64,000 bases of DNA from a virus. This document shows positions 5,132-55,628 of this stretch, piece after piece (positions within the stretch are counted from its first letter, which is position 1; the number at the start of each line of letters is the position of its first letter). Under the pieces are notes generated by a model that was given only the letters and a program-made list of their open reading frames with translations, had not been told where the DNA came from and ran no database searches. The translations under genes and the position numbers were made by a program. Where the stretch lies: positions 64,001 to 128,000 of IMG/VR virus record IMGVR_UViG_3300031788_000002. One strand, given 5' to 3'.

Positions 5132-5164
5132 CGGATGCAGCCTACCTTCTGGTAGGCTCGTGCG

Positions 5165-37419: not shown

Positions 37420-37453
37420 AAGAAACACGGGGCGCCCTCCGAAGAGAGCGCCC
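37418..37453 (-). terminator. Intrinsic terminator with cUUCGg loop for the MoxR/VWA operon
   Basis: Minus strand GGGCGCTCTC-TTCG-GAGGGCGCCC followed by CGTGTTTCTTTT. Confidence 0.75.
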
Positions 37454-37458
37454 GGTTC

Positions 37459-38727
37459 TTAGAGCTTTTGGCTCTTGTCGCACACCACTAGGTGTCCCCA
37501 GGGTGCCGGGCGTCGCGCGTAGGGGCTTCGCACGATGCACCAGATGACGTCTAATCCGCGAGGAGATTTTGCGGGCGCTGTGCCATCGCCGTCGGTGTAG
37601 TAAACGAGCAGGTTAGCGTCGCGGTACTTCCTTCTTACGTAATCGAAAACTTTGGTGAAGTCCGTTCCTCCCCGGCCCTTGTAATCGATCTTTGGTAAGT
37701 CGCGTAGGCGAATACGCCGATCAGATTGAACGTAGACATCGACTTGAAGGTGCACTGCTTCTTCGATGCCCACGCTGCGCATCAAGTGATACACCTCGCT
37801 GCGCGCGCTGAGGAGTTGCTTGTGGCCCATGGATCCCGAGGTGTCTTCGACCAAGACAACGTTGGGACGATGGTCCACCAATCCCGCGCAAAGCACACCT
37901 GCAAGCTGCCCTCCGACGCTGGGGTTTCGCATGGAGTAAACAGAGTTTCCGGCGATGTGCTCTGCGCTGCGTTGAATGAGGCGGCGGCAGAGCTTACGCC
38001 AATCCACTTCGGGCGCGTTGTAGCGCGCTTTGATCATTGTCTTGAAGCGCCCAGGGCCGTCGAGAGCCGCTTCAATCGCATCGAGGGTTTGTTGTTTGGC
38101 GCAGAGGACCTCGGCTTCATTCTTCCCGTAGGCGGCGTCGAGCGCCGCCTCGAGTTCTTTGTTTACAGCGTGCCCTCCCCCGGAGCCACAACCGCCCGCG
38201 CCGATCTTGGGTTGCCAGGATGTGGCGGCTTGCTTCGGCTGCTTGCCGTCCATGAGCTGTTGCAGCGTTTTGTTTTTTCTCCGCAGCTCTTCCTCGAGCA
38301 GGCTGTAGTACTGCTCGAGGGTCAAGTTGGGGGGATGGTTGTAGGTCGAGGGGTAAATAACCCAGGAGGGCAATGGCCACTTTTCTTCTTGAAGGTTGAA
38401 GTTGATGGCTTCATCGGCGGCGATGCCCGCTAGGTTTTCATCGGGGAGGGCGATGACACGTTCAAAGCCGCGTAGAATGTGTTCACTCTCATGTACGAGG
38501 CAGCTGCCGATAACATCTTCTGCCTGAACTTCAGGATCGGACAGCAGCCAGGGGCCGTTAACGTAGAGCACCAAGCCCTGCGTAATGCCCATGGTGGTCC
38601 CCGGGACGTCAACCACTTCCACCACCATGTCGAGCAGGATCCCGTCATAGTAGTCGGCGCGAGAGTTGACGTAGGCACGTCCGAGGGAAAGGCGTGAGAG
38701 TGCCTCAGAGACGATAGAACGGTCCAT
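37459..38727 (-). CDS. Metallopeptidase-like + VWA domain protein (DUF2201-type)
   Basis: HESEH (HExxH), DTSGSM MIDAS, GRGGTDF, YTDG. Confidence 0.85.
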   Translation of the reverse strand: MDRSIVSEALSRLSLGRAYVNSRADYYDGILLDMVVEVVDVPGTTMGITQGLVLYVNGPWLLSDPEVQAEDVIGSCLVHESEHILRGFERVIALPDENLAGIAADEAINFNLQEEKWPLPSWVIYPSTYNHPPNLTLEQYYSLLEEELRRKNKTLQQLMDGKQPKQAATSWQPKIGAGGCGSGGGHAVNKELEAALDAAYGKNEAEVLCAKQQTLDAIEAALDGPGRFKTMIKARYNAPEVDWRKLCRRLIQRSAEHIAGNSVYSMRNPSVGGQLAGVLCAGLVDHRPNVVLVEDTSGSMGHKQLLSARSEVYHLMRSVGIEEAVHLQVDVYVQSDRRIRLRDLPKIDYKGRGGTDFTKVFDYVRRKYRDANLLVYYTDGDGTAPAKSPRGLDVIWCIVRSPYARRPAPWGHLVVCDKSQKL

Positions 38728-39998
38728 CAGGTAACCCCGATGTACTTTAGGTGCCCCTTGTCGTAGAGCAGGCCAGTGGTCTGCGCTACAGCTTCTTGAA
38801 GATGAGGGTCTGGATGGTTCCCGTCGTAATGGGCACGAAGTAACGTCTTCGCGGGGCGTGTACAGACATCGGCGTAACCAAAGCTCGCCGCGTTGAACAG
38901 CAAGAGCCAGCAGCTAGTTGCCAGCTGCGCTCCCCTTACGGGGTCCGCTTCGTTAGCTACGTAAATGGCGCACGAGGACAGCACCGTGCGTACAACATCG
39001 AGCTGCTTAGGAATCTGCCAGCCCTTCAGGAGTACGTCTTCGGGATTGGGCAAATTCAGCTTCTTCATGAAGACGGCCCAGTCGGCAGCGAGCCCTGCGC
39101 CGACCAGGCCCGCAACGACGTCGAGCTGGGTGCGCTCTCCTAATCCAAGGCAGCGGGCGGTGGTGACGCCGTTGACAGCCCACGACCACGTACGGTGAGA
39201 AGGCCAGGGGCCCGCGGCGCGGGGGTCGTCTGCCTCTGGTTGGTCATAGAGGCGGTAGTGCTCCTTTCCATCATCCTCCCCCTCTCCCTTTTTCAGCTTG
39301 TAGGTGCCGCCCGACGACGCCAGAAAATCGTGGGTTACGCGTAATACAGCGCCGAAGTGAAGCCCCCAGTTGGCGCGAACGCGGGCTTCACTGTTGGTCA
39401 AATTGGGGATGTCGGGCTCGTACTCATCGTTCATGTATTCGTCCCATTGCTTCAGCGTAGGATTTGTGTACGCGTAGTGCAGTACGCGGTTAGCGAAGGG
39501 GATTTCAAGCTCTCGGCCGTTAGCTGCAATATCTGGGGGGTTCATTGCGAGAACAATGCGTACACCCGGGGGCAGCTTGTACTCACCGATGGTGCGCTCA
39601 TTCATCAAGGAGAGAAGCGCTGCCTGTACTGCGCGCGGCGCGGATGAAATCTCGTCGAGAAAAAGAATGGCACGTTCGTCGTTGATGGCAGCGCGAATCT
39701 GGGGCAGCGCGCATTCGAGAGAGAAGCCAACGGGCGTCATAACCGGGTAGCCCCCGATGTGCTCCGGGATCTTCGTGGAGGCGAAGATCGGGTAGACGTG
39801 CAAGCCCAGCATCTTTCCGATGGCGTAGATGCGCTCGCTTTTGCCAACGCCCGACCCTCCAATGGAGCATAAATTGATGCCCCAATTGCCTTCTTGGAAG
39901 GGCGCCATCGGCCCTTTGGCGAGCGGCGTGGACATGCTAGCCACCAGCAAACTCTCAAAGCGATCCATGTTGTTTTCTTTCTTCGATGAATGCGACAA
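38727..39998 (-). CDS. MoxR-like AAA+ ATPase
   Basis: GGSGVGKS, LFLDEI, AMNP, PFANR; coupled to the VWA gene. Confidence 0.85.
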   Translation of the reverse strand: MSHSSKKENNMDRFESLLVASMSTPLAKGPMAPFQEGNWGINLCSIGGSGVGKSERIYAIGKMLGLHVYPIFASTKIPEHIGGYPVMTPVGFSLECALPQIRAAINDERAILFLDEISSAPRAVQAALLSLMNERTIGEYKLPPGVRIVLAMNPPDIAANGRELEIPFANRVLHYAYTNPTLKQWDEYMNDEYEPDIPNLTNSEARVRANWGLHFGAVLRVTHDFLASSGGTYKLKKGEGEDDGKEHYRLYDQPEADDPRAAGPWPSHRTWSWAVNGVTTARCLGLGERTQLDVVAGLVGAGLAADWAVFMKKLNLPNPEDVLLKGWQIPKQLDVVRTVLSSCAIYVANEADPVRGAQLATSCWLLLFNAASFGYADVCTRPAKTLLRAHYDGNHPDPHLQEAVAQTTGLLYDKGHLKYIGVT

Positions 39999-40266: not shown

Positions 40267-40518
40267 CTAGGCACTCTCGGTGGGCTCACTTTGCACAACG
40301 CGAATATCAATGCGCATGGGTTCTACCGCAGCGATTAGACCGAATAGAACGTTCAGCTCCCGTTGCTTGAGCAGTGAATCCTGCTCCTTGATGTCTTCAG
40401 TGCCTTCATACAGGCCGACGTTAACGCCGTATTCCTTAAGAAACCGGTAGAGAAGCTGCGCCAGCGTTCGTTTGTCGCTATGCGCTTTACCACTGACCGT
40501 TACCGTGAGTGTGTTCAT
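40267..40518 (-). CDS. Hypothetical protein, 83 aa
   Basis: AAGGA RBS; ATGA overlap. Confidence 0.55.
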   Translation of the reverse strand: MNTLTVTVSGKAHSDKRTLAQLLYRFLKEYGVNVGLYEGTEDIKEQDSLLKQRELNVLFGLIAAVEPMRIDIRVVQSEPTESA

Positions 40519-41144
40519 GTATTCCTTCGTGCAATGCAGTACCCGGCCGCCCGGTTACAAGGCCCGTTGCGCCAGCAGCGCGTGGTGATTCCTTCCACGC
40601 ATTCGTTGTTCTGTAGAATGTGCTCCCCGGTACCCCACAGCCCTTCCAAGAGGTTCAGGTTGATGTCGTTGCAGCATACGGAACAGATGTACTCAAAAGG
40701 CGGTATCGTAATAAAATCCAGGGCCCATTCGCGGTTGGGGGCGCGATCGGAAAGAACGAAGCTACCGTCATAGACGATCCCCGTTTTTTCCCCCTGAAGA
40801 ATGTCGGAGCCGCACCCTGTGCAAGCGGCCACAACAAATGCACCGCTTACGAGCACGGGAGGCTGGTCCTTGTAAATGTAGCGAAGGGTTGAGCGTGTTT
40901 CATCCCAGCAATCTTCATGCAGATAGTAGGGATGGTACTGATACTCGCCATCTGCGGCCAGAAGGGGCAGAGGTACTTCGAAGACCCGCCCACAGTCATC
41001 TTGCGTAACGTTCGCAATGACAATGTGCAGTAGACAAATTGGCGTCTCAGCCGCTACGAGTTTGCTGCAGCTGTTGCACACGTGGTCACTTTGCATGACG
41101 ACGCGGTTCGCCAGTGTTTCCCTAGCCAGGCTGCTCATTGCCAT
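40515..41144 (-). CDS. Cys-rich hypothetical protein, 209 aa
   Basis: Several CxxC/HxxC pairs; GGAGG RBS. Confidence 0.55.
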   Translation of the reverse strand: MAMSSLARETLANRVVMQSDHVCNSCSKLVAAETPICLLHIVIANVTQDDCGRVFEVPLPLLAADGEYQYHPYYLHEDCWDETRSTLRYIYKDQPPVLVSGAFVVAACTGCGSDILQGEKTGIVYDGSFVLSDRAPNREWALDFITIPPFEYICSVCCNDINLNLLEGLWGTGEHILQNNECVEGITTRCWRNGPCNRAAGYCIARRNT

Positions 41145-41800
41145 GTCATTACCTCCCGTTGAATGTGCAGCCAGCGTTTACTGAGCGCTTCGAGGCTCAA
41201 GTCGCGGGGGCACCCTAAGGGGTCGAAATCCCCCAAATAGGTATCGAGGAATTGTTCATCGACGCGCTCCCCCGTGTGCAAGTAACGTGGGAGATCAAAA
41301 CCATGAAGCAACAAGTCAGATACGCGATAGTCATTTTGTTGGCGTAGTTCAAGCTCACGCAGAAAGAGATCGTCTTCAACGTCGTCTGGGTAGGCATGCA
41401 GCCCTACCCACCCACGGCGCCTATCTCCGATTTCGTAGCGTTCTTCTTGTGTCCAAGGATTGATGTCCCCCGGTTTTGCATCCCCGCAGAGTAATTCGAA
41501 GTCGAACTGCCCGATGAAAGACACGATTCCATATTGATCAACCACGCGCAGGCGCAGGGGGTCTTTGCTGCGCACAGAGCGCGTAAGAAGCGTGGTGCGC
41601 TCTTCGAGTACAGGGCACAGCGTGTTCTCAACGGTCCAGCGGCGCTGCGGCATGATGGGGTCTTGGAAGGTTCTACCCCACAGGCCCAATAGTGATGTTA
41701 ATAGACGGGTGCCGGGAATGACTTCGAACTCTTTTGTTAGCGGCACGACGAGCCTCCTCTTGGGGTAAAAAACCACTGTGGTCTGCGAGCCACCAGGCAA
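41135..41800 (-). CDS. Hypothetical protein (true start may be the internal MPQRRW)
   Basis: ORF track; the 5' part overlaps 41673..41861. Confidence 0.45.
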   Translation of the reverse strand: MPGGSQTTVVFYPKRRLVVPLTKEFEVIPGTRLLTSLLGLWGRTFQDPIMPQRRWTVENTLCPVLEERTTLLTRSVRSKDPLRLRVVDQYGIVSFIGQFDFELLCGDAKPGDINPWTQEERYEIGDRRRGWVGLHAYPDDVEDDLFLRELELRQQNDYRVSDLLLHGFDLPRYLHTGERVDEQFLDTYLGDFDPLGCPRDLSLEALSKRWLHIQREVMTWQ

Positions 41801-41861
41801 TGCCCTGGAGAACGCCGACCACCGCGGCTAATAGGAAGAGGGGGACCTCTCCCTGTTTCAT
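41673..41861 (-). CDS. Small single-pass membrane protein, 62 aa
   Basis: Hydrophobic LFLLAAVVGVLQGIAWWL; AAGGA RBS; ATGA overlap. Confidence 0.45.
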   Translation of the reverse strand: MKQGEVPLFLLAAVVGVLQGIAWWLADHSGFLPQEEARRAANKRVRSHSRHPSINITIGPVG

Positions 41862-42016
41862 GCAGCGTTGCTTCCTTTCTTCGGTACAGTTGGGGGTTCT
41901 TCGCTGTCGGGTTCTCCTTCGTCGAAGGTCATGTAGAGCTCCGCAACGTCCTGGGAGAGCTGTGACGTTTCCGGGGGTATCGGCGGTGTTTCTTTCTTGG
42001 GGGTTTGCTTTCTCAT
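41858..42016 (-). CDS. Small acidic/Pro-rich protein, 52 aa
   Basis: ATG at 42016 (MRKQTPKK); avoids overlap with the RNAP gene. Confidence 0.4.
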   Translation of the reverse strand: MRKQTPKKETPPIPPETSQLSQDVAELYMTFDEGEPDSEEPPTVPKKGSNAA

Positions 42017-42024
42017 CGTGATTG

Positions 42025-42035
42025 TTATCCCTGCG
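42025..42035 (-). promoter_or_regulatory. Candidate phage promoter motif CGCAGGGATAA
   Basis: 10/11 match to 30197-30207. Confidence 0.4.
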
Positions 42036-42085
42036 AAACTGCGTTTCTTGTAGGAGCGAACCTCCTCGCGGTACGCTAGGCGGCC

Positions 42086-45000
42086 ATGGCCTACCTCAAT
42101 CCCAAGGAAGCGTTCGCCGACTTGAAGCAGAACGTCATCGAGGGGTTGCAAGCGCACTTCCCCATCACGGGGTCAAAGCAGAGCATCCATCTCGAGGGCG
42201 TCGACGTGCGTGAGCACGCACGGGATTTCAATGATCTAACGGAGCAACACAAGGCCAAAGTCGAGGGGCGCTCCTGGACGGTACCGGTCTTTGGGGCGCT
42301 GGCTCTGAAGAACAATCAAACGGGAGAGGTCCTCGATCGAAAGAGCATTCAGCTGGCGGACTTGCCGTACATGACCCAGCGGCACGCCTACATCGTTGAT
42401 GGGCGGGAATACCAGGTGGATAACCAGTGGCGCCTTAAGCCAGGCGTGTACACGCGCCGTAAAGAAGACGGGGAGCTGAAGTCTCAGTTCAACGTGCAGG
42501 GAAAGCGCCCCTTCGACATCACGTTGGATCCAGAGACCAAGGTTTTTTCCATGATACGCGGGGACTCAAAGAACATCCCCGTCTACCCCCTCATGAAAGA
42601 GCTCGGTGTCGACGACGACACGCTTCAAGCATCCTGGGGGAAAGAGGTCTTGGCGGCGAACCGAGGCGCCCGCGCAGCGGGTACGGCGCTTGAGCGCTTC
42701 TACAAAGCTGACAAGAAGCGTGCACCGACGAGCACCGAAGAAGCGCGGCAGCACTTCATCGATACGATGGAGGGTTCGAAGATACGCCCCGAGGTGACGC
42801 AGATAACGCTTGGGAAGCCCTATGACCACGTGAACGGGAATCTATTGCACGACGTTACGACCAAGATGATTGGCGTGCAACGCGGCGAGATTCCTGAGGA
42901 TGAGCGAGACAGCCTCGTCTTCAAGGATTTGCACACGGTGGCCGACTTCGCCAAGAAGGGCCTGACCGACTGGAAGACGAAGAAAGCGCTCCAAGCGCGC
43001 ACGGCACGTAAGATCAATACCGCCACCAGCATCCGCCAGGTGATTCACGGCAACATGTTCAGCAGGCCGGTTAAAGCTACATTCACCGAGAACGCGCTGG
43101 CGCGTACGGCCGATCAGGTCAACCCCGTCGAGATGCTGACTTCGAGCTTTCAAACGACCATCATGGGGCCCGGGGGAATCCAGAGCGACAACGCCATCAG
43201 TGAGTCGGCAAAGCTCATAAACCCTAGTCAAATCGGGTTTTTGGATTCCATACATACCCCCGAAGGGTCCAAAACTGGGGTAACTTTGCACCTTCCGATG
43301 GGTGTCATTAAACGCGGGAACACGCCTCTCATCCCGGTGTACAACCTGCGCACGCAGCAGATGGACCACATTGATCCTGTGACGTACCACAAGTCCGTGG
43401 TGATGATGCCCGACCAGGTAACGTGGAATAAGAGCACGCCCATCCCCGTGGGTAAGCGCGTGATGGTGTCGCAGAAGGGCAACGAGCTGGTAGAGGCCGA
43501 CGCTTCTTCCGCGGACTACGTGATGCGAAGCCCAAGTCAGCTTTTCAGCATGACTTCGAACTTGATTCCTTTTCTAGGAAACAATTCAGGTAACCGCGCG
43601 AGCTACGCCACCCATCATATCGAGCAGGCGATCAGCCTGCACGATCGGGACGCTCCCCTAGTCCAATCGGGAACAGGGCGGGCGACGGGTGTGCGTACCT
43701 TTGAAGAATTCATGGGACGGCAGTCTGCCCACATCGCGCCTACGGCGGGTACGGTGACAAAGGTCACGGCCGACGCGATCACCGTGCAGGATAAGGAGGG
43801 TAAGGACCACCACGTCACCATCTACAACAACTTTCCCCTCAATGATCCAAAGGCAGTTCTTCATAGTACGCCGGCTGTAAAGGAGGGGGATGCGGTTACA
43901 CCGGGGCAGCTTCTGGCCGATAACAACTTCACGCGCAATGGTCAGTTGGCACTCGGAAAGAACTTGCTGGTCGCCTACATTCCTTTTAAGGGACACAACT
44001 TCGAAGACGGCATCGCTATTAGCCAGACCGCCGCCGCCAAAATGGCGAGTGAGCACATGCATAAGCCGTCGATTACGTTGGGGCCTGATGCCATTACGGG
44101 CCTCGCGAAGTACAAGGCGTTGCACCCAACATCCTTCGAGACGCAGCAGCTAGAACACCTGGATGACGCAGGGGTCGTACGCGTTGGTCAAACCGTGCGT
44201 ACGGGCGATCCGCTGGTGGTGGCATCCCGCCCGTTTGACTCCAAGGGGTCGTACTCTCTGAGCAAGATTCGTAAGAGTCTAAGCAGTCAAACGCTGGACT
44301 CCAGCTTGACGTGGAAGAGTGAGCATCCCGGTGAAGTGGTGGGCATTCATCGAGATGAAGAGGGTAATGTCACCGTACATGTGCGCACCGTAGAGCCTAT
44401 GCAAGTAGGCGATAAAATGTGTTACGACGAAGAAACGGAGATGCTTACCGCGCGCGGGTGGCTTCCAGTGGCGGATGTAACGTGTGCCGACGAAGTCTGC
44501 TCTCGTGTTGACGGGCACATTGTTTATCAAAGTCCCGATGCGGTTTTTGCTTACCCAACCGGCGGGCGTATGTACCGCATCAAAAGCCGGCAGGTCGACT
44601 TACTCGTTACCGATAAGCACGACATGTTTGTCAAGGAGCGGGGGGCCTCCGACTTTTTGTTGACGCCGGCGGCTACGCTTTTTGGTCGTCGCATTCGCTA
44701 CGCCAAGAGTGGGCTCTGGCAAGGGCATGACCCGGAGTACATTGCCTTCCCCGCTCTGTGCGTTCGTGCCGGTCAGTACGGTAACGGTTCTCGGATGTTG
44801 CCCGAAGTACGGTTGCCCGTCTCGGTGTACTGCATGCTCTTGGGGGCCTACGTGTCTAACGGGCACACGTTTGATCAGCCGGGGGACTACGGCATCGCCA
44901 TTGACAAAGCAACGGGACCGCAATTCGAAGAACTGTGCCGTGCGCTAACCGAGGCGAACATCGCCTTCAGTCGTACGAACGGCGCGACCTGCTCCCGCGT

Positions 45001-48000
45001 TACCATCCATTCCAAGCAATGGCTTGAGCACTTTCGTGTTCTTGGGCGTGCACGCGTCAAGTACATCCCGGAGCACATCTTCAGTTTTTCGCGGGACAGC
45101 CTCTGCATTCTCTTTAAGTGGTTGATGTGGGGGAATAGTTCTTCAATGATGACGGGGCGTCCTGTGGCGTACTTTACCTCGTCAAAACGTCTAGCCGATG
45201 ATGTTCAGCGTTTGGCTCTGCACGTGGGCTACGCCGGTAACGTCCGTATTCACGCCGAGGAAGGGTGGCAAACGATCAAAGGTAAGCCCTCGTGGTGTGC
45301 GCGTTCCTACGAGGTGCGCATCGTTACAACGAAGCTGGAGCCTCAGGTTAATAACGGCCACGTAAAGAAGCAGCGTGCTCAAGAAGAATACTTCGTCGAG
45401 AACTACACCAAGCCGGTGTACTGCGTCCGTGTTCCCGGGCACGTTGTCTACGTTCGCCGAAACGGTAAAGCTGTTTGGTCGGGCAACTCGGGGCGTCACG
45501 GGAACAAGGGGGTCATCACCACTATCCTTCCCGACAAAGAGATGCCGCACACAGCGGACGGGCGTCCAATTGAAGTCGTCTTGAATCCTAGCGGCGTTCC
45601 CGGGCGCATGAACATGGGTCAGGTCTTGGAAACGGCGGCCGGTAAGATTGCAGAGAAGACGGGGCAGACCTACATCGTCAACAACTTCGAGCACGGTGTA
45701 GACCAACTCGATCGTGTGAAGAAGGCGCTCAAAGAACACGGGCTTACGGATACCGAAGAAGTAATTGACCCCGTGAGTGGGCAATCCCTCGGTAAAGCTT
45801 TGGTAGGTCCTCAGCACCTTCTGAAGTTGAACTTTCAAATTGATAAGAAGGTGAGCGTGCGCTCTGGTATGCCTCTTGAGGGTGCCGAACCAGAGCATTA
45901 TGATGCGGACACGCTCATTCCCGCGCAAGGGGGTAAGACGGGCGGGCAGTCCATGGGTAACCTGGGATTGTACGGGATGCTCGCGCACGGTGCGAAGCAC
46001 AATATCCGGGAGATGCAGACTTGGAAGAGTGAGGGTGCGGATCGAAAAGAGCGTTGGGACAGCCTTCACAATGAAGTGTGGCGTGCCATTCAAACGGGGG
46101 AAACACCACCCCCTCCGAAGAAGACCTTCGCGTTCCAAAAGTTCGAGGACATGCTGACGGCTGCGGGTATCAACGTCACGAAGCGCGGGCATACACTTCA
46201 GTTGACTCCCCTCACCAATCAACAGATTCTCGCGCAAAGCGCGGGGGCGTTACCCAATCCGGGCTACAGCGTCATTTCGAAGAAGGGTAAAGCAGGGGAT
46301 GAGCCCGTCGCGCGTAAAGGCGGCGTCTTCGACCCCGCGATTACGGGAGGACATGGGGGGCAGAACTGGTCGCACATTGTTCTTCCGGAGCCCGTCCCCA
46401 ACCCCGTATTCGAGCATGCGATCCAGCGTGTTCTTGGCCTTAAAGAGGGGCAGTACGCGGACATCGTTAACGGTGAGGCCGCGGTTAAGGACGGCAAGGT
46501 TGTTCCCTTGGGAACAGAGGGCTCTAAAGCGGGGGGTGCCGCCATCGCGCATATGCTGGGTGAGCTCGACGTAAAAGAGGAGCTCAAGAAAGCTAAGGAC
46601 GCTCTCGACAAGCTCAAGGTACCCGCGAACCTCGCGCATCGAGATGTTACTCCAAAACTTGATCAGCTTTCGAAGCAGGTGCGCTACCTGTCCACTTTGG
46701 ACAAGGCAGGGATTCATCCAAAGGACGCCTACGTTCTCGAAAACCTGCCCGTGATCCCACCCATCATGCGGCCCGCAAGTTTTTTGCCGAACGGTAACGT
46801 ACACGAAGCGGATCTGAACAGCTTGTACACGCGCGCTGGGCAGCTCGCGTCCGCAATGCAATCCCCCAACTACAAGTACTTGAGCGACCATGACAAGAAG
46901 GAGGATCGCTTCAATTTGTACGACAGCGTGAAAGCGCTCATGGGGGTGGGGGAAGATTGGGCGACCCGGGGCAAGCAAGGCAAGGGAGTGCTCCTTCAAA
47001 TCGCGGGCTCTGCACCCAAAGAAGGTTACTTCCAGAATACGCTCTTATCGCGTCGTCAAGACATGACCATGCGCGCCACCATCACGCCAGATGCATCCAT
47101 GGGGCTTGACCAGGTGGGCCTACCGGAAAAGAAGGCGCTCGACTTGTTCCGCCCGTTTGTAGTGAACAAGCTGCAAGAAATCGGAGCCGCTAGTACACCA
47201 CGGGAAGCGCATGCGCTTTTGTCTGAACCGGGGAAGAAAGATCCCGCGGTGTACCAGGCGCTCGATAAGGTGATGGCGGAGCGCCCCGTGCTGCTCAAGC
47301 GCGATCCGGTACTGCACAAGCACGGCGTGCAAGCTTTTTGGCCGCAGCGCGTCCCGGGGAAAGCCATTCAGATTCACCCCTTAACTACCGGGGGCTTCAC
47401 GGCCGATTTCGACGGCGACACCATGGCACTCTACGTACCCATCGGGCGCGACGCTGTTGAAGAAGCCAAGGGCATGGTGCCTTCCCGAAATGTATACAAC
47501 GAAGCCAGCGGCAAGGTTATTTACCAGCCGAGTCTGGAAGCCAGCCTGGGCTTGTTCAAACTCTCGCGTGTTACAGGGGATAGCGGAAAGACATTCGACT
47601 CCCATGCCGCCTTACTCAAAGCGGCACAAGCGGGAAAGCTGACGGTGACCGAAACCGCAACGGTCGATGGGAAGCCCACGACGGCCGGGCGTATCTTGTT
47701 GGCGTCCGCCGTTCCGGAATCGATGCAGCACGACATGTTGCACAACATGAATCTGTCCTTGAATAAAAAGGGTACGGATCGCGTGTACACGCAGATCGCC
47801 AAGGAACACAAGGCCGCTTTCGCGGATTCGGCGGTCAAGCTGATGCGCCTCGGGTACGACGCCGCCTTCGGTGTTCTCAAGATCCCTAACCCGGCAACGC
47901 AGGGAACGGCGGCGGCTGTCGAGAAAGATGGGGAACACCCCAAGGACAACGTTCAGTACTTGCCTATGGGTACGCATTCCTTGAGCTTGAACGACTTTAC

Positions 48001-49633
48001 GCCGGACAAGGCCACGCGGGATCCTATCGTGGCGGCTGCAACTAAAAAGGTGGAACAGATCAATGCGCGCACGGATCTTAGTGACGCCGAGCGAGAACAG
48101 CATGTGGTCAACACCTGGCACGATGCAACGGACCAGATGCTGAAAGAGCATGATACGAAGATGACGGCCAATCCCAATAACCTGTACCTGATGCAGCAAG
48201 CGGGTGTGAAGCCGGGGCCTATTCAATACCGGCAGCTTCGCCTGGCCCCGATGCTCATGGTGGACAGCCAGAACCGTGTGATTTCGACGCCGGTAACGAA
48301 GAGTTACTCCGAGGGGTTGGACGTGAGCTCCTACTGGACGCAGATGGCCGGTGCGCGCCGAGGATCAGTACTCAAAGTTCAAGAGGTGCGCGAACCGGGG
48401 TACTTTACGAAGAAGCTCATCAACGTAACGATGGGCCTACAGGTTACGAAGCATGATTGCGGTACGGATAACGGGCTGCACTTGCCTATCCACTCCCAGG
48501 ATATCTTTGACCGTACTCTGGCACAGGAACACACCATTGGGGGTGTGACGTACGCGAAGGACACGGTGATTACGCCGCAGGTAGCGTCCACAATCAAAGC
48601 CGCGGATAAGAACGCAACTTTGTTGGTCCGCTCAACATTGAAGTGCGACAACGGAACCGGCGTTTGTCAGAAGTGCGCGGGCCTGGCGCCCGATGGGCAG
48701 CATTATTCCTTGGGAACGAACGTTGGGATTTTGGCTACGCAAGCTCTTGGGGAACGCGCTACTCAGCTCACGCTCAAAGCTTTTCATGGAGGCGGTGTAG
48801 CGGAGCGTGGCGCAAACTTGGTCAACGATTTTATTCGCGTCCAGCAGTTGACGTCTCTGCCCAAGGAAATCCCGAACGCGGCGCGTTTGGCTGCGAAGGA
48901 TGGTGTGGTTGAGAAAATTGAAGAAGATCCCACGGGTCACGTGGCGTGGATTGGTGGCGTCAAGCACCACATCGCCAACGATGATCAGGGTAACCCGCTC
49001 TTCAAACCGCTCCCTGGGCAGACCGAGTCCACCTTACCCGGGGGCACGAAGTGGACGGGGTTGCAAGTCGGTATGAAGGTGCGCGCGGGAGACCCTTTGA
49101 CGGATCCGGCGCGCACCTATGTCAATCCCCATGACTTGTACGCCGTCACGGGAAGTATGGCTCAAGTGCAAAACCACTTGGTGACGGAGCTGCATGACAT
49201 TTACGGTCGCGAGGGCGTTCGCCGTCAGAACACGGAGACTGTGGTGCGCGCCCTTAGCGACCTGACCCGTGTCATTAACCCCGGGGATCATGAAACCATG
49301 ATCAAGGGACAGTACGCGTCGCGTGCCAAAGTGCAAGAAGCCAACCGACAGCTTATAGCGCAGGGTCTTCAGCCGATTCAGCACACGCCGATTATGAAAG
49401 GTATCAGCGTGATGCCCCTTGAGGTACAAGAGGATTGGATGGCCAAGTTGAACCATGAGCGCTTGCGGGATCCAGCGCAGGGACTGCCCGCGAGTGCCGC
49501 CCTCGGGGCTTCCTCTGATCTGCACGGGAACAACCCGGTAGCAGGCATGGCTTACGGAGCCGAGTTTGGAATGACCAACGTCAACGTCTTCGACAAGCCG
49601 CACCTTAAAGACGTCGCGTCCCACGCATACTGA
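42086..49633 (+). CDS. DNA-directed RNA polymerase, fused beta-beta' single chain, with intein (about 2159 aa after splicing)
   Basis: Beta motifs: TPEG, GHNFEDG, GDKM/SGRHGNKG, NPSGVPGRMNMGQVLE. Beta' motifs: KRDPVLH, ADFDGD, GARRG, GYFTKKL, C...CQKC, GERATQLTLKAFHGGG. Confidence 0.93.
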   Translation: MAYLNPKEAFADLKQNVIEGLQAHFPITGSKQSIHLEGVDVREHARDFNDLTEQHKAKVEGRSWTVPVFGALALKNNQTGEVLDRKSIQLADLPYMTQRHAYIVDGREYQVDNQWRLKPGVYTRRKEDGELKSQFNVQGKRPFDITLDPETKVFSMIRGDSKNIPVYPLMKELGVDDDTLQASWGKEVLAANRGARAAGTALERFYKADKKRAPTSTEEARQHFIDTMEGSKIRPEVTQITLGKPYDHVNGNLLHDVTTKMIGVQRGEIPEDERDSLVFKDLHTVADFAKKGLTDWKTKKALQARTARKINTATSIRQVIHGNMFSRPVKATFTENALARTADQVNPVEMLTSSFQTTIMGPGGIQSDNAISESAKLINPSQIGFLDSIHTPEGSKTGVTLHLPMGVIKRGNTPLIPVYNLRTQQMDHIDPVTYHKSVVMMPDQVTWNKSTPIPVGKRVMVSQKGNELVEADASSADYVMRSPSQLFSMTSNLIPFLGNNSGNRASYATHHIEQAISLHDRDAPLVQSGTGRATGVRTFEEFMGRQSAHIAPTAGTVTKVTADAITVQDKEGKDHHVTIYNNFPLNDPKAVLHSTPAVKEGDAVTPGQLLADNNFTRNGQLALGKNLLVAYIPFKGHNFEDGIAISQTAAAKMASEHMHKPSITLGPDAITGLAKYKALHPTSFETQQLEHLDDAGVVRVGQTVRTGDPLVVASRPFDSKGSYSLSKIRKSLSSQTLDSSLTWKSEHPGEVVGIHRDEEGNVTVHVRTVEPMQVGDKMCYDEETEMLTARGWLPVADVTCADEVCSRVDGHIVYQSPDAVFAYPTGGRMYRIKSRQVDLLVTDKHDMFVKERGASDFLLTPAATLFGRRIRYAKSGLWQGHDPEYIAFPALCVRAGQYGNGSRMLPEVRLPVSVYCMLLGAYVSNGHTFDQPGDYGIAIDKATGPQFEELCRALTEANIAFSRTNGATCSRVTIHSKQWLEHFRVLGRARVKYIPEHIFSFSRDSLCILFKWLMWGNSSSMMTGRPVAYFTSSKRLADDVQRLALHVGYAGNVRIHAEEGWQTIKGKPSWCARSYEVRIVTTKLEPQVNNGHVKKQRAQEEYFVENYTKPVYCVRVPGHVVYVRRNGKAVWSGNSGRHGNKGVITTILPDKEMPHTADGRPIEVVLNPSGVPGRMNMGQVLETAAGKIAEKTGQTYIVNNFEHGVDQLDRVKKALKEHGLTDTEEVIDPVSGQSLGKALVGPQHLLKLNFQIDKKVSVRSGMPLEGAEPEHYDADTLIPAQGGKTGGQSMGNLGLYGMLAHGAKHNIREMQTWKSEGADRKERWDSLHNEVWRAIQTGETPPPPKKTFAFQKFEDMLTAAGINVTKRGHTLQLTPLTNQQILAQSAGALPNPGYSVISKKGKAGDEPVARKGGVFDPAITGGHGGQNWSHIVLPEPVPNPVFEHAIQRVLGLKEGQYADIVNGEAAVKDGKVVPLGTEGSKAGGAAIAHMLGELDVKEELKKAKDALDKLKVPANLAHRDVTPKLDQLSKQVRYLSTLDKAGIHPKDAYVLENLPVIPPIMRPASFLPNGNVHEADLNSLYTRAGQLASAMQSPNYKYLSDHDKKEDRFNLYDSVKALMGVGEDWATRGKQGKGVLLQIAGSAPKEGYFQNTLLSRRQDMTMRATITPDASMGLDQVGLPEKKALDLFRPFVVNKLQEIGAASTPREAHALLSEPGKKDPAVYQALDKVMAERPVLLKRDPVLHKHGVQAFWPQRVPGKAIQIHPLTTGGFTADFDGDTMALYVPIGRDAVEEAKGMVPSRNVYNEASGKVIYQPSLEASLGLFKLSRVTGDSGKTFDSHAALLKAAQAGKLTVTETATVDGKPTTAGRILLASAVPESMQHDMLHNMNLSLNKKGTDRVYTQIAKEHKAAFADSAVKLMRLGYDAAFGVLKIPNPATQGTAAAVEKDGEHPKDNVQYLPMGTHSLSLNDFTPDKATRDPIVAAATKKVEQINARTDLSDAEREQHVVNTWHDATDQMLKEHDTKMTANPNNLYLMQQAGVKPGPIQYRQLRLAPMLMVDSQNRVISTPVTKSYSEGLDVSSYWTQMAGARRGSVLKVQEVREPGYFTKKLINVTMGLQVTKHDCGTDNGLHLPIHSQDIFDRTLAQEHTIGGVTYAKDTVITPQVASTIKAADKNATLLVRSTLKCDNGTGVCQKCAGLAPDGQHYSLGTNVGILATQALGERATQLTLKAFHGGGVAERGANLVNDFIRVQQLTSLPKEIPNAARLAAKDGVVEKIEEDPTGHVAWIGGVKHHIANDDQGNPLFKPLPGQTESTLPGGTKWTGLQVGMKVRAGDPLTDPARTYVNPHDLYAVTGSMAQVQNHLVTELHDIYGREGVRRQNTETVVRALSDLTRVINPGDHETMIKGQYASRAKVQEANRQLIAQGLQPIQHTPIMKGISVMPLEVQEDWMAKLNHERLRDPAQGLPASAALGASSDLHGNNPVAGMAYGAEFGMTNVNVFDKPHLKDVASHAY
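44420..45487 (+). mobile_element. Intein in the RNAP beta motif GDK..GRHGNKG (356 aa), endonuclease probably degenerate
   Basis: M|CYDEETEMLT; block B VTDKHDM; ends WSGN|S. Confidence 0.9.
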
Positions 49634-50913
49634 TGGGCCGCTACATCACCGATCCCCATACGGATGCGCGTACGCCGCTCGAGCGTACCAGCATGCGCAG
49701 TTCGTGGACGCAGCCCCACGGGGCTTCGCCCGCGTTTATTCACGAATCTCGCGTCTTAGACTTTAATTTGGCCACCTGGACCGTCGATGTACGCTCTCAG
49801 TTTGACCAGAAGTTCTACCCGAACATTCAGGTTGCGGGCCCTTACCTTCATCCTAATCGCGGAGAAGGTTGGTCGGTTGTTCCCGAAGTGAACGCAAAGT
49901 GCGTGGTATGTTTACCCAGTGACGGGCCCCCGCCTTTTGTGCTGGCTTTCATCATGCCTATGGAGACCCCCGAGGATCCCTCCTCGAGCGCTGCGGCAGA
50001 AGACGCAGCGGATACCACAGGTACTAACCAGGGTGCGGTTTTCTCTGGAGGTCGTGCACGGGGTAAGCCCGGGGACATGATATGGCAAGGGCGGGACGGC
50101 AACTTCGTGATTATGCATCGCGGGGGCGTTCTCCAGGTGGGGTCGACGGAGCTCGCCCAGCGCATTTACATACCGCTCGGCAATATCATTACGGACATCA
50201 GTCAAAACTACGAGCATCACAATACTGGGGGTTCCATTAACTGGGGACTGTCCACAAGCTACACCGACGATAATCCTCAGACCGAGTTTCGTCAGACGTT
50301 CCGGTTGTTTGCCAACGATGCCCAGGCGGATCTACGCATTGCTGTTGGGCAAGTGCATCAGCCTGTTCCAGAACCTTCGGGGGATGCAGGCGAGACCTCG
50401 AACAACACGGCGATGGGTGTAGGGGCCGACACTATCGTTGCTGAGTTCGTGATCGCACCGGCCGGCTTCAACGTGGAAGCGGGTTCGCCGGTGAGCGGCG
50501 TAGAGAACCTGACCAAGTTGAAGATGTTTTTTGACCGGTCAGGGTCTGGGTTCTTGCGCGCTGAAGCAAGCGTCAACATCCGCGTCAAAAATCAACTTCG
50601 TATTACGGCAGATCAGGGGATGACGCTGACCTCGGGTAAGTCACTGCAATTGCAGGCGACAGAAAATCTACGGTTGGTGGGAAGTACTGGGGTTCAGATT
50701 ACGTCGGATAAGGGCGCGGTAACCATTAACGGAGGGGACACCCCCGTGGCCACCGTCGGCTCAGCGGTGAGCATTGTTATCGCAACGCCCGTACCTATTA
50801 TCCTGAGCGCACCCGTACCGGGGACGCCAGGTGTCATCTCAGCGGGCGCGATGTTCACCGGCTTTATCACCAACGGATCCAGCACGGTGTTGGTCCCGGG
50901 GCCGCAAGGCTAA
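49633..50913 (+). CDS. Baseplate hub/spike protein (gp5/gpV-like)
   Basis: OB-fold-like N-terminus (VPEVNAKCVVC) and beta-helix-like C-terminal repeats. Confidence 0.5.
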   Translation: MGRYITDPHTDARTPLERTSMRSSWTQPHGASPAFIHESRVLDFNLATWTVDVRSQFDQKFYPNIQVAGPYLHPNRGEGWSVVPEVNAKCVVCLPSDGPPPFVLAFIMPMETPEDPSSSAAAEDAADTTGTNQGAVFSGGRARGKPGDMIWQGRDGNFVIMHRGGVLQVGSTELAQRIYIPLGNIITDISQNYEHHNTGGSINWGLSTSYTDDNPQTEFRQTFRLFANDAQADLRIAVGQVHQPVPEPSGDAGETSNNTAMGVGADTIVAEFVIAPAGFNVEAGSPVSGVENLTKLKMFFDRSGSGFLRAEASVNIRVKNQLRITADQGMTLTSGKSLQLQATENLRLVGSTGVQITSDKGAVTINGGDTPVATVGSAVSIVIATPVPIILSAPVPGTPGVISAGAMFTGFITNGSSTVLVPGPQG

Positions 50914-50916
50914 GCG

Positions 50917-51549
50917 ATGGCTCTGGGTGCGCTCAAAAGCGGTACGTTGGGCGGCTTCAACGTGGGCCTCGCGGTGGCGGTTGGGTTTTTGGTACCTCTT
51001 GGCATCCAAATCGACGCGCTCATCGCGGCGGGCCTAGGCCCCTTTCAGCTCGACATCAGCGCGCGCCTCATGGCGACGCTGTCCATGTCGGTGGGCCTGA
51101 GCATTCAGGTGGGTAACCCCTTCGCTGGGATTCAAGCGGTGCTCATGGCGCTCGCCAACATTCAAGTGGCGTTGTCCCTAGCCCTCGAATTTCCTATCCC
51201 CTCAATTCAAATTGGTGTGCAGCTCAGCGCTTCCATCGCGTTGGCGGGCACGCTGTCGATTCAGCTGGGGGGCTTGCAATTGGCTATTCAGCTGGCTCTC
51301 GCGATCAAAATCCCTGCGCTACGTGCTACGGCGCAACTCGCCGCCAGTTTAAACGCCGGCCCCGTATTCGCGTTTACCTTCGCCGGGGATTCCTTGGCGA
51401 CCACGGGCACGGAGGTGAACGGCTTATTTGCCGGGGGTCTTATTGACGGTACCAACGTCATTCAGCCTAGCGATCCCGTTTTTGGTATCGTGCTGCTAAG
51501 CGCAGCGCCTTCAGTTCAAGCATCGTTCGATGTACTCTTTCAGGTATAG
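50917..51549 (+). CDS. Very hydrophobic protein, 210 aa
   Basis: Nearly uncharged L/A/I/G/Q/S sequence next to the spike gene. Confidence 0.55.
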   Translation: MALGALKSGTLGGFNVGLAVAVGFLVPLGIQIDALIAAGLGPFQLDISARLMATLSMSVGLSIQVGNPFAGIQAVLMALANIQVALSLALEFPIPSIQIGVQLSASIALAGTLSIQLGGLQLAIQLALAIKIPALRATAQLAASLNAGPVFAFTFAGDSLATTGTEVNGLFAGGLIDGTNVIQPSDPVFGIVLLSAAPSVQASFDVLFQV

Positions 51550-51554
51550 AAACC

Positions 51555-53882
51555 ATGATGCAGCCTCTTTTCTACGCCCCCGAAGTGTTCATCGAGAAAA
51601 GCGCGGGCGAGGTCGATCTTCCAGACGATCCGAATCAGTGGCCGCAACAGATTCTTCAAGAGCTCTACAAGCAAGTCCCCTACATTACCGATTACCAACC
51701 CCATGTGCGCATGGCGAGCGTGGACGCGGAACGGGGGTACGGGCTAGGGCACGTCGAGATCCAGAACCAAACAGAAGCCCCGATGGATACGCCGCAGGAT
51801 CAATTGGATTCGGCGGGCATCCGTACGGTGCGCATCCCCTTCATCATCCGGGAAAAGAAGCTCAGCCCCTTCGACTTGCTGATCAATGATACCGGCGCGA
51901 CCATCCCGCTGACGGAAAACCGGCTGCGTCAGGCGCTCTTTCGGCCCCAGGCATTTGACGTCACCAGCCGAACGCCGGGGGATCAGAGCATGATTGGTCA
52001 GCTCTACCCACCCTACCGTCAGAACTACGGGTTTGGTGGGGGCGGCATCGCGATGAACGCGGCCGGCGGGATGGGCATTGGCAAGGTGGGCATGAAGCTC
52101 GCGGCCGCGGACGAAGCGTCCAGTGCCTTCGAAGCGTTCATTCTGAGCGCTGCGGAGAAGGACGCGAACGTCCTCACACAATCAGCGCGCGAGCACATCA
52201 AGCCGAAGAACTTTGCAATCCCGAAGGGCGAAGGCCCCGGCGGTACAGGCAAGTACCCTATCGAGAACGCGACCCATGCGAAGGCTGCGCTGTCGATGGT
52301 CGGCGCTCACGGCTCACCCGCGGAGAAGACCAGGGTCTATTCGGCGGTGGCCAAGAAGTATCCGGGGATTGCCGCGAGGTCGTTGGTGCCTGCGGTCAAA
52401 GTGGATGCAAAAAAAGAAGCCTCGGTGCTGCTTGCCATCCTCCCCACCTTGGACGGTTTCGATGCGGAGCATGCCGCAAACGAAGTAAATGCCCTAGGCC
52501 CCAACGCATTTTCTCGGATCAAGGTAGCGTCCTCTCGTTTCTACGACGCGCTGCGACTGGTACTTGCCGCGCAGGAGCAGACGAAGCACGCGGCGTGGGA
52601 GCAGTGGCTCAAGCCCGACGTGGTCCAAGTGCAAAAAGCCGTGGAGGGCTACAAGGTAAAGACGGCGAGCCGCCGGTACTGGGATCCGCAAGAAGCGTTG
52701 ATGAATCGCGGGGACGTGGTGCGGAGCTTCGGGACCAAGGTGGCCATGCAGGCGGATCTGACCGGTTGCTGCACACTAGGTACGAACCTGCAGAAGACGG
52801 CGGAGGACGCACCCGCGACGGCATCGGTGGTGACCAAGCCCGGGATGTACAAGGTCATGGACAGCGGGGGCAAAGAGCAATTGGGGTACGTGGTGCCTCA
52901 GCTGGTCGATGTGCATGGATCCGAGATTCCGATCGCCTTGTTCACCAACGGCAGCACGGTCGCGGTGCAGAGCGACATTCATGGCGTACCTGCGGGGGGC
53001 GCCAACGTGAGCTTGCCTTCGGGGCCCATTGGGCAGCACGGCACGTTTTACACCGAGCGCGACGGGGGCGTTCGTATGACGGTGCCCTTCGATTTGCAGG
53101 ACTCGGTGACGCAAGGCGATCAACCCCGAGTGTACAACGGCACGACGTTCGGGGGCGACAAGGTCACGCTGTCCGTGCAGCCCAACCTGGTCGACGTGAC
53201 CCCCGTGGACAACGGCCGGGTGTTGATCCCCGCGGAGTGGAAGTGGCTGCCCCTTGATGGCGCCGATCACATTTCGCTCTTGAGCAGTGAGGAAGCCACG
53301 GCAGCCAACCCCGAGAGCAAGCTGGCGCACGTTGAGGTGGTCTCCGACGGAATGTCCTTTACTCTGCGGGGGACGCCTCTGACCAAGATCGCGACGGAGC
53401 AGCGCAGCTTCTTGTCCCTGGATGACGCGATCTTTCTCCTCGCGGGGCTTGGGGTGGAGATGAATTACGCCGCGGAGAAGCTGGCCGCGGCGGTGGCCTT
53501 CAGCCGGCCGGAGCCGATCAAGGTGGCGTGCTTGGTTGCTCCGAAGGGCGATCAGATGAAGCAGGCCCTCGAGAAGGCGGCTGGAATTGTGGGTGCCATA
53601 GCCGGTTTCAAACAGCCGCTCCTTCTCAAAGAAGCGGCGAGCTTCCCCGATCCGCAGATGGTTGACACGGTCTTGAGCCTCGGGTTCATCAATCCCGAGA
53701 ACATCATGACCTTTGTTAGCTACCTTCCGGACATCGAAGACGTGCAGACGAAGATGTGTGAGTTGCTCTTCGCCGTGCGCTGCGGTCTCTCGAACGTGCC
53801 GCAGTCGGCACTCGAGCGCGCAGTGCGGTCGACGGAAGAGGTCATTGAGGGTCTCAAGATCCTCGGTTTCCAAGGTTCCTAA
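51555..53882 (+). CDS. KxA-motif-rich head/internal protein, 775 aa
   Basis: KSAG, KLAA, KDAN, KEAS, KVAS, KHAA, KTAS, KTAE, KLAH, KIAT, KLAA, KEAA and others. Confidence 0.65.
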   Translation: MMQPLFYAPEVFIEKSAGEVDLPDDPNQWPQQILQELYKQVPYITDYQPHVRMASVDAERGYGLGHVEIQNQTEAPMDTPQDQLDSAGIRTVRIPFIIREKKLSPFDLLINDTGATIPLTENRLRQALFRPQAFDVTSRTPGDQSMIGQLYPPYRQNYGFGGGGIAMNAAGGMGIGKVGMKLAAADEASSAFEAFILSAAEKDANVLTQSAREHIKPKNFAIPKGEGPGGTGKYPIENATHAKAALSMVGAHGSPAEKTRVYSAVAKKYPGIAARSLVPAVKVDAKKEASVLLAILPTLDGFDAEHAANEVNALGPNAFSRIKVASSRFYDALRLVLAAQEQTKHAAWEQWLKPDVVQVQKAVEGYKVKTASRRYWDPQEALMNRGDVVRSFGTKVAMQADLTGCCTLGTNLQKTAEDAPATASVVTKPGMYKVMDSGGKEQLGYVVPQLVDVHGSEIPIALFTNGSTVAVQSDIHGVPAGGANVSLPSGPIGQHGTFYTERDGGVRMTVPFDLQDSVTQGDQPRVYNGTTFGGDKVTLSVQPNLVDVTPVDNGRVLIPAEWKWLPLDGADHISLLSSEEATAANPESKLAHVEVVSDGMSFTLRGTPLTKIATEQRSFLSLDDAIFLLAGLGVEMNYAAEKLAAAVAFSRPEPIKVACLVAPKGDQMKQALEKAAGIVGAIAGFKQPLLLKEAASFPDPQMVDTVLSLGFINPENIMTFVSYLPDIEDVQTKMCELLFAVRCGLSNVPQSALERAVRSTEEVIEGLKILGFQGS

Positions 53883-53973: not shown

Positions 53974-54909
53974 GTGATTCGAAGAAGCCCCGCGGAGTAC
54001 TACATCAAGTACCTCATGCTGCTACCCGACAAGCTGTCGGACGCCGACATTGTTCGGACCTTGAGGGAACACCAACTGGATTACCCAGGAGCGAGTTACT
54101 TGACGAAGCTGCGCGCGGGCTTGCGCCCGCCGACGCCCTTTCGTCCGCTGATGGCGAGCGATGTCCCTTCCTACCGCTTTTTACAGAGGCATCGGGTCCA
54201 CCATCTCTTCTTCCGAAATACCTACACGTTCGAAGCGCTGGAGATGTTGACCACGCCCCGCTCGAAGGAGCTGATCGAGTCCCTCATCTTGGCGGAAGAA
54301 CCCTTAATGAGCATCTGCCTTCGCTTGCGACGGTTTGGCGTTCATGTGAATCCTAAGTCGGTGGAGTACTACGAGCACTTCTTCTTCAACACGAGCCTCG
54401 TAGACCACACGGAGCTTCGCGCGCTCATATCGATTCGCGTGGAAGACATGGCGGCCGGAAGCAACCCGGATGCGGAGACCCTGGTGCGCTACAAAGCGAT
54501 GCAGCGGGCTTTGTACAACGACCCGCGCTACGTAGCGGTGAACGCTGTATCCCCTCAGATCGCAGCGATGCGTCTTCAGATGCGCCACGGCTTGATGCCA
54601 AATCGCATTGAACGAATGAAGCTAGCGCAGAGCGTTCAGCAAATGGCGATGACCGCGTTGTCCGACACGTTGCAGCGAGGGGGTCCGGAGTACACCACGC
54701 AGGCGCGGGATCTTGCGTCGGTGGCAAAAGACTTGAGCACCATCATTCGTGAAGCGGGCGGGGAGAACACGCAGCTCAACGAAAGCTTGCAGCGAATTGC
54801 GCTCAGTAACGATACGACCGAAGTGCAGAACATCCGACAGTTGCCCGGGGGGCAATATGAAGATAGTGTCACGATCACTTCCGTTGAGGTGATGAATGAC
54901 AAGCGCTGA
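53974..54909 (+). CDS. Hypothetical helical protein, 311 aa (terminase small subunit candidate by position only)
   Basis: Lies upstream of the terminase large subunit gene. Confidence 0.45.
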   Translation: MIRRSPAEYYIKYLMLLPDKLSDADIVRTLREHQLDYPGASYLTKLRAGLRPPTPFRPLMASDVPSYRFLQRHRVHHLFFRNTYTFEALEMLTTPRSKELIESLILAEEPLMSICLRLRRFGVHVNPKSVEYYEHFFFNTSLVDHTELRALISIRVEDMAAGSNPDAETLVRYKAMQRALYNDPRYVAVNAVSPQIAAMRLQMRHGLMPNRIERMKLAQSVQQMAMTALSDTLQRGGPEYTTQARDLASVAKDLSTIIREAGGENTQLNESLQRIALSNDTTEVQNIRQLPGGQYEDSVTITSVEVMNDKR

Positions 54910-55363: not shown

Positions 55364-55628
55364 GAGCAAACTCCACGTGCTCTCTTGTGAAACGTACATG
55401 CACGGCGCGCCAGCCAAGCCCCAAAGCAACCTGTCGGATAATGGCGCGGATGGACGTGTGTAGGTCCTTGGGCAATGAGGCAATCTGAAGCTTGGCGTGG
55501 TGCTCGCGTTTCTTGTCGTCGGTATCGAGGGACCAGCCACCAGGAAAGTGAGGGCCGCCGGAGCTCAACCAGCGCCAAACTTCCTGAAGGGCCTCTTGGG
55601 GGTCGGCTGTTTCTTCTTGAGGTTCCAT
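55236..55628 (-). CDS. Hypothetical protein, 130 aa, antisense within the head cluster
   Basis: Protein-like sequence (MEPQEETADPQEALQEVWRWL) filling the gap before the terminase gene. Confidence 0.4.
   Translation of the reverse strand: MEPQEETADPQEALQEVWRWLSSGGPHFPGGWSLDTDDKKREHHAKLQIASLPKDLHTSIRAIIRQVALGLGWRAVHVRFTREHVEFALKPYRVEVRQVQEAQREVFRQAARRKREGTRTNPEGGQTPAP

Follow-up and report, generated by a model that had tools for sequence, protein, structure and literature searches.

A predicted single-chain beta-beta' RNA polymerase of bacterial type, interrupted by an intein, in the genome of an uncultured tailed phage

Introduction

RNA polymerase of the bacterial type is regarded as needing a dimer of alpha subunits as its assembly platform, and natural rpoB-rpoC fusions are known from Helicobacter and Wolbachia, in which the C-terminus of beta is joined to the N-terminus of beta' in cellular enzymes that retain alpha, omega and the beta' zinc ribbon. 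We here describe an open reading frame (ORF) in a 64,000-base stretch of viral DNA (the window; bases 64001-128000 of the 167,481-bp IMG/VR record IMGVR_UViG_3300031788_000002, with G000 denoting coordinates on the whole record), which in all likelihood encodes the catalytic core of a phage bacterial-type RNA polymerase as one polypeptide that is interrupted by an intein.

Phage-encoded homologues of beta and beta' that come with neither alpha nor omega have been described for the jumbo phages phiKZ and AR9, where one set is packaged in the virion; these enzymes are made of four or five split polypeptides, with two sets in each genome, have diverged much further and lack a sigma homologue (PMC7598289), whereas the phage described here has one chain, one copy and a sigma gene. 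The mReC phages are, like this phage, uncultured and tailed, and their bacterial-type beta and beta' branch outside the sampled bacteria (PMC7481178). In the portion of that account on which we rely, mReC phages have one gene for beta (about 900-1100 amino acids, aa) and another for beta' (about 1000-1400 aa), whereas the two are fused here (PMC7481178). The mReC capsids match Gp23 (PF07068) and their terminases PF03237 (PMC7481178). Judged against the same portion, membership of the window phage in the mReC clade was rejected, as its polymerase gene is fused, a PF07068 match is missing and the terminase belongs to GpA_ATPase (PF05876) instead of PF03237. Fusion is mentioned in that study for crAss-like phages only (PMC7481178), and a single-chain layout of bacterial-type beta and beta' in phages is apparently without published description: we found none in a literature search in which many journals were not covered and only the crAss-like fusion was discussed.

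The nearest deposited phages are the Salmonella phage Arash (OQ632216) and the Vibrio phages D69, D148 and D181, with about 25-34% identity. In Arash, beta and an N-terminal portion of beta' together form Gp206 (1525 aa), and the remainder of beta' is Gp216 (606 aa); D69 has the same layout. This split lies near residue 567 of Escherichia coli beta', which corresponds to about aa 1861 of the window polymerase, where the chain is continuous. The fusion junction, the missing zinc ribbon, the portal-adjacent gene position and a related sigma are common to both, whereas the Arash catalytic loop reads AADYDGD instead of TADFDGD, and Arash has no intein at the GDKM/SGRHGNKG site (the slash marks the insertion point). 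In the published records, the Arash-type proteins are annotated as 'beta subunit' or 'hypothetical', and the fusion is unmentioned.

Architecture of the single-chain polymerase

The Pfam matches along the 2515 codons of the ORF (Table 1) follow the order Rpb2_3 and Rpb2_6 for beta, and then Rpb1_1 (below the cut-off), Rpb1_2 and Rpb1_5 for beta', with 192 bits for Rpb2_6, 75 for Rpb1_2, 69 for Rpb1_5 and 33 for Rpb2_3. An original prediction, made from the letters and reading frames of the window, had proposed a single ORF with beta motifs followed by beta' motifs and about 2159 aa after splicing, and this was borne out by the codon count, the Pfam order and the 356-aa length of the intein. 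The top PDB sequence matches were bacterial beta' chains throughout (E 1e-94), and therefore the PDB copy searched holds no structure of a closer relative. Both catalytic barrels are likewise found in one polypeptide in crAss-like gp66 and YonO, but these are too diverged for the COG and Pfam models of beta and beta' (PMC7481178).

Table 1. Features of the polymerase locus, with positions in the window (position 1 is its first base)
Feature	Position	Strand	Basis
Divergent intergenic region upstream of the polymerase gene, presumed promoter location	41777..42085	.	
Whole ORF (P0001), 2515-aa precursor of the predicted single-chain beta-beta' RNA polymerase	42086..49633	+	ORF, Pfam, PDB and homologue searches
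N-extein: beta module aa 1-778, ends GDKM; diverged rifampicin-pocket region, flap-tip-like helix aa 723-735	42086..44419	+	alignment
Intein aa 779-1134, 356 aa: Cys1, VTDKH (TxxH block), LAGLIDADG-like endonuclease core, C-terminal WSGN, then Ser+1	44420..45487	+	
Start of C-extein: remaining beta module, SGRHGNKG ... GINVTKRGH, aa 1135-1369	45488..46192	+	alignment
beta' module aa 1370-2515, joined without linker to the beta C-terminus	46193..49630	+	Pfam, alignment
Short loop (GGVFDPAITGGHGGQNWSHIVLPEP...) in place of the bacterial beta' N-terminal Cys4 zinc ribbon	46319..46414	+	alignment
Clamp helices (in bacteria, the coiled coil at which sigma region 2 docks), predicted as two helices	46811..46951	+	alignment, AlphaFold
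Catalytic loop TADFDGD, aa 1772-1778; Thr codon ACG for the cellular Asn, three Asp kept	47399..47419	+	
Bridge helix	48332-48427	+	alignment
Second zinc site, Cys4 (C814/C888/C895/C898 equivalents)	48458-48676	+	alignment
N-arm of the trigger loop	48734-48796	+	alignment
Downstream 426-aa gene, probable baseplate central spike (gpV/gp5/VgrG-like)	49633..50913	+	atlas, sub-threshold DUF2345

The architecture was read from a MAFFT alignment of 18 family members with Arash and E. coli beta plus beta', in which nearly every 50-residue window of the two E. coli subunits is matched, apart from the zinc ribbon and the insertions specific to E. coli. Equivalents of all catalytic residues are present (D460/D462/D464, R425, beta K1065, K1073, R678, R1106, E813, D814), and the lid, the clamp helices, the rudder, the flap-tip-like helix, the bridge helix and the trigger loop with Q929 and H936 are retained. 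At the junction, the end of beta (aa 1369) continues directly into the beta' sequence TLQLTPLTNQQ..., and about 13 N-terminal residues of E. coli beta' are without counterpart. An AlphaFold model of aa 1400-1770 (mean predicted local distance difference test score, pLDDT, 74) contains the clamp helices as two helices and matched bacterial beta' chains in Foldseek (E 2e-18).

The loss of the N-terminal Cys4 zinc domain of beta', together with retention of the C-terminal zinc site, the bridge helix and the trigger loop, had been proposed before, and the alignment agrees on each of these points. The zinc-ribbon residues C70/C72/C85/C88 of E. coli beta' align to a gap, the segment here being TGGHGGQNWSH, and fewer than four Cys are found in this region in 218 of 220 family sequences, Arash included. 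The description of the enzyme as minimal or streamlined holds relative to E. coli. It is nevertheless overstated, because the parts without counterpart are mostly E. coli lineage-specific insertions (beta 225-343 and 938-1040, beta' 943-1130), besides part of beta 1100-1200 and the zinc ribbon. With about 1010 aa for beta and about 1150 aa for beta', the modules come close in size to the smallest subunits found in bacteria.

In the rifampicin pocket, the changes H526S, S531T, Q513R, R529Q and I572T (E. coli numbering) were found, most of them family-wide, and the phage enzyme is predicted to be insensitive to rifampicin. The last codon (49628-49630) encodes Tyr, and a C-terminal Tyr was present in all eight sequences inspected, Arash among them (...HAY, ...HSY, ...FTY, ...GRY).

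The polymerase intein

The intein lies within an active-site motif of beta, and its removal leaves 2159 aa. Orthologues without an intein have an uninterrupted GDK[ILMV][STA]GRHGNKG, so the borders are precise, and the splice features of a class-1 intein are present (C779, VTDKH, WSGN/S1135). At the same site, we found 11 orthologous inteins of 350-359 aa, whose host proteins are in part as little as about 40% identical; Cys1, the VT..H block and the terminal WSGN are kept in all of them, together with much of the endonuclease core. Because the splice residues are kept in these 11 orthologues, the sequences indicate that the polymerase intein is a maintained and probably splicing-competent element. 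It would excise itself post-translationally to leave the 2159-aa chain. Some points weigh against this reading: the residue that precedes the terminal Asn of the intein is Gly, not His, the LAGLIDADG_3 match of 19.4 bits is under the Pfam cut-off of 22.5, and production, splicing and activity of the polymerase are all inferred. Both endonuclease motifs (LLGAYVSNG, WLMWGNS) have Asn at the usually acidic position.

Inteins in this phage family target both catalytic motifs, as a second hot spot lies directly after the catalytic DFDGD (for example, GADFDGD/CAYGSI); relatives with an intein at the DFDGD site are P0013, P0017, P0023, P0081, P0087, P0097, P0109, P0113 and P0116, and some proteins of the family are as long as 3000-4700 aa. 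The portal protein of the window phage (1132 aa, 33686-37084, + strand) also bears an intein, at about 34709-36043, with the borders ARWRQD/CVTPE...ASVN/TNYIPIM compared with ARWRHDNNYIPIM in an intein-free relative and a LAGLIDADG_3 match of 30 bits; together with the polymerase intein, the window therefore contains two inteins.

A family of fused phage polymerases

A fused gene in a metagenomic record could be a chimeric rpoB/rpoC assembly, or a decaying gene with a non-splicing insertion, and an assembly artefact had been named as a possible refutation at the outset. The identical 2515-aa protein was found on 4 contigs, and two full-length, near-identical variants of the same 90% cluster on 7 and 5 more, with these contigs coming from JGI, ENA, Logan and NCBI. 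In a word-indexed search, 591 homologues reached E 1e-10 or less; the top 120 of these are mostly about 2150 aa long and lie on contigs of up to 200 kb, and the longer ones hold at least one intein. Among the 150 top-scoring 50%-identity clusters from an exhaustive HMMER search with the beta' query, in which identity fell as low as 34%, almost every representative was fused, with the beta' module beginning at about residue 1000 of proteins of 2000-4700 aa. As the same protein occurs on several independent contigs and the clusters of relatives are fused alike, the fusion is a genuine, conserved family trait and no assembly artefact. Hundreds of relatives, Arash and Vibrio D69 as cultured phages among them, have conserved the junction sequence, the frame stays open over 7.5 kb in DNA of 58% G+C, and all catalytic and all intein splice-site residues are kept, which makes an artefact or a dead gene exceedingly improbable.

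The comparison with cellular and phage enzymes that the original prediction had called for was made with a beta' tree (54 rows, 884 columns, quick IQ-TREE search), which is unrooted, has long branches and was built without Bacillota, Cyanobacteriota and Deinococcota. All 27 phage sequences are set apart from the 27 bacteria, which represent about 10 phyla, by a branch with an SH-aLRT (Shimodaira-Hasegawa-like approximate likelihood ratio test) value of 100. The Arash-type enzymes are on the same phage side as the window polymerase, among basal, unresolved branches of the fused family, and Helicobacter and Aliarcobacter group with the other bacteria and not with the phage family (Wolbachia was not included). 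The best 80 matches in representative bacterial genomes were ordinary rpoC genes of many phyla with 41-46% identity, and among these no donor lineage stands out.

The catalytic loop

The catalytic loop reads TADFDGD instead of NADFDGD, as originally noted. The first Asn of NADFDGD has been called universally conserved (PMC7862312), whereas the 216 non-identical family sequences have Asn in 175, Gly in 32, Ser in 5 and Thr in 4 cases, with at least 27 changes at this position on a FastTree tree of the same sequences. The 15-member clade that holds the window sequence has mostly Gly, its sister sequence has Asn, and Arash has Ala. In E. coli, the N458S exchange altered sugar selectivity less than 5-fold, and the main determinant is R425 (PMC7862312), which is kept in the phage polymerase. 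Because the position is labile throughout the family, the effect of N458S is small and R425 is retained, the Thr is, by this comparison, a tolerated variant at a freely drifting position and not special to this enzyme.

Sigma, alpha and omega

The original prediction had noted that no alpha or sigma gene is in the window. This is correct for the 64 kb of the window, where we found no sigma, but it does not hold for the genome, in which a sigma-70-family ORF of 286 aa lies outside the window at G000 7291-8151. First seen as a faint Sigma70_r2 match, this ORF has collinear single-sequence Pfam matches to r2, r3 and r4_2, each below the cut-off, and it is conserved in two relatives with complete genomes (37% and 29% identity). 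A profile of these three sequences, built without any annotated sigma, was compared with the PDB, and the best 60 of 65 matches were all sigma factors (best E 8e-9); the profile covers one group-3-type sigma end to end. In the same comparison, 6pfv_A is aligned over residues 43-264. The ORF also matches Arash Gp10 (E 1.5e-11), and the same sigma profiles found no second sigma in this genome. The sigma N-terminus (DPLNSYLRKKTAA) shares LRKKTAA with the sequence DPFLRKKTAA near the C-terminus of a 540-aa protein (G000 3523-5145), and the sigma orthologues have not kept the RKKTAA part.

Since the genome encodes a sigma-70 homologue that is related to Arash Gp10, we consider it likely that the polymerase uses this phage-encoded sigma for initiation and does not depend on the host polymerase. 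The clamp helices and the flap-tip-like helix, which are sigma docking sites in bacteria, are retained, and a reading of the enzyme as sigma-less is not borne out. Against initiation with the phage sigma stands the possibility that this factor acts on the host core enzyme and redirects it, as the sigmas of T4 and SPO1 do.

For alpha (PF01000, PF01193) and omega (PF01192), Pfam gave no match in this genome, and PF01000 was without match in the two relatives rated 100% complete. The genome itself is probably complete, because its first 230 bases recur at its end as a direct terminal repeat (G000 1-230 = 167252-167481), despite the source label of a linear, 89% complete record. The gene inventory thus agrees with the originally proposed alpha-independent enzyme, but the independence follows from gene absence, which is also compatible with the use of host alpha and omega. 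We regard it as evenly balanced whether the covalent fusion replaces the alpha-dimer assembly platform.

In the competing view, the single chain supplies only beta and beta', and assembles with host alpha2 (and omega) into a hybrid enzyme. The chain is indeed a full-length bacterial-type beta and beta' in which nearly all of the E. coli sequence finds its match, and natural as well as engineered bacterial rpoB-rpoC fusions still use alpha. Moreover, alpha is needed by all known cellular enzymes of bacterial type, whereas the jumbo-phage RNA polymerases provide a precedent without alpha and show that it is dispensable (PMC7598289). Three genomes of the family are without an alpha gene, the family stands on a branch of its own apart from the bacteria sampled, and an interface to the alpha of one host would need to persist over many hosts. 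If the Arash virion data given below hold, a virion-delivered enzyme must also work before or without host subunits, or carry them. We therefore judge a hybrid with host alpha to be possible but rather doubtful.

Gene neighborhood and the question of virion packaging

The portal gene comes before the polymerase gene, and the large terminase gene (55627-57402, matching GpA_ATPase, PF05876) after it. The polymerase stop codon TGA (49631-49633) shares the A with the ATG of the downstream gene (TGATG), and four further genes are packed closely after that one. The overlap is as originally described, but the identity of the 426-aa product as a spike is a lead only: it reached a protein-atlas score of 0.95 to Phage_base_V/Gp5_OB clusters with 187-192 shared features, its DUF2345 match is sub-threshold, and the AlphaFold model (mean pLDDT 50.6) was unusable. 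In nine related loci that extend past the polymerase gene, the spike-like gene begins a few bases to about 60 bases after it, and the order portal, polymerase, spike-like gene and terminase recurs in those related loci that cover the whole block, one of which has a polymerase of 42% identity. Between 42086 and 55363, no terminator-like sites of note were found.

Mass spectrometry of Arash virions detected Gp206 as the most frequent protein, with 3516 spectra, compared with 1333 for the major capsid protein, 1210 for Gp216 and 467 for the sigma Gp10 (PMC10585845). Because the gene order is conserved and no notable terminator interrupts the block, late co-expression with the structural genes and packaging, as suggested originally, are plausible from the portal-terminase context and the Arash proteome, while remaining an inference for this phage. 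We lean slightly towards the view that polymerase and sigma are made late with the surrounding structural genes and enter the virion, which would deliver them for early transcription. Since this genome contains a single copy of the polymerase gene, that enzyme would have a role later in infection as well. The far-reaching version, in which an alpha- and omega-free core with its own sigma is a self-sufficient holoenzyme that is packaged, injected and transcribing from the first minute without host polymerase, with the active-site Asn free, appears unlikely to us as a whole.

Several observations speak against packaging. The case for it rests on one proteome, that of a distant relative, in which 116 proteins were scored as virion proteins, enzymes of nucleotide metabolism included, and whose authors warn of carry-over of abundant proteins (PMC10585845). 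The polymerase has no LRKKTAA-like tag, and its K-x-A[SAGE] sites are not in excess (3 compared with 4.0 expected). The enzyme could be a non-virion polymerase that is synthesized once infection is under way and acts in middle or late transcription only, with an accidental gene location and an Arash signal that is due to carry-over, and the long list of virion-scored proteins as well as the missing targeting tag or K-x-A enrichment fit this explanation. On the other side, the Gp206 spectra exceed those of the major capsid protein (PMC10585845), and in nine related loci, one of them with a polymerase of only 42% identity, the gene has been kept between portal and terminase and before the spike-like gene. 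N4 and phiKZ also express their virion polymerase genes late, an analogy that we count against a non-virion enzyme. On balance, we see a non-virion role as a serious possibility that is nonetheless somewhat less than probable, and continue to favor packaging with that same reserve.

No phage promoter motif was found in a search that covered intergenic k-mers, which showed no strong enrichment (at best about 3.5-fold for 8-mers and none for 9- or 10-mers), and sigma-70-type sites, which were at or below chance (4 compared with 6.6 expected). A candidate 11-mer, CGCAGGSATAA, was rejected: it occurs only twice, 1.84 matches are expected by chance at one mismatch, and the two regions have little in common besides the 11-mer.

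Upstream of and divergent from the polymerase gene, two genes of about 210 aa (40515-41144 and 41135-41776, both - strand), one of them rich in CxxC pairs, are present in most related loci; they were considered as alpha-like, but the sequences, of which one is Cys-rich, gave no support. PHROGs and Pfam searches gave no match for these two ORFs or for those at 50917-51549, 51555-53882 and 53974-54909, and a protein-atlas look-up of the 775-aa protein was also without match. Nearly all related loci have, between portal and polymerase, a conserved gene pair (37459-39968, - strand) for an AAA_5 MoxR-like ATPase (413 aa) and a protein resembling DUF2201 VWA/metallopeptidases (422 aa). A strong terminator-like hairpin (37430-37453; 10 pairs, 8 of them G-C) lies between the convergent genes that end at 37419 (+) and 37459 (-).

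Discussion

The single-chain polymerases form a family of hundreds of phages with genomes of about 160-200 kb from many environments. Its members offer a natural single chain that can be aligned residue by residue with the bacterial enzyme and that comes with a sigma and without an alpha gene, and this permits a direct test of whether fusion replaces alpha and omega. With two kinds of cultured relatives, Arash and the Vibrio D phages, the question of virion delivery can be tested at the bench.

The relaxed constraint on the Asn of NADFDGD across the family is of more interest than the Thr of this one enzyme, and the free variation at this position, like the two intein hot spots exactly at both catalytic motifs, amounts to a natural experiment on the active site. 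The single-chain polymerase may also provide a compact bacterial-type enzyme for in vitro work.

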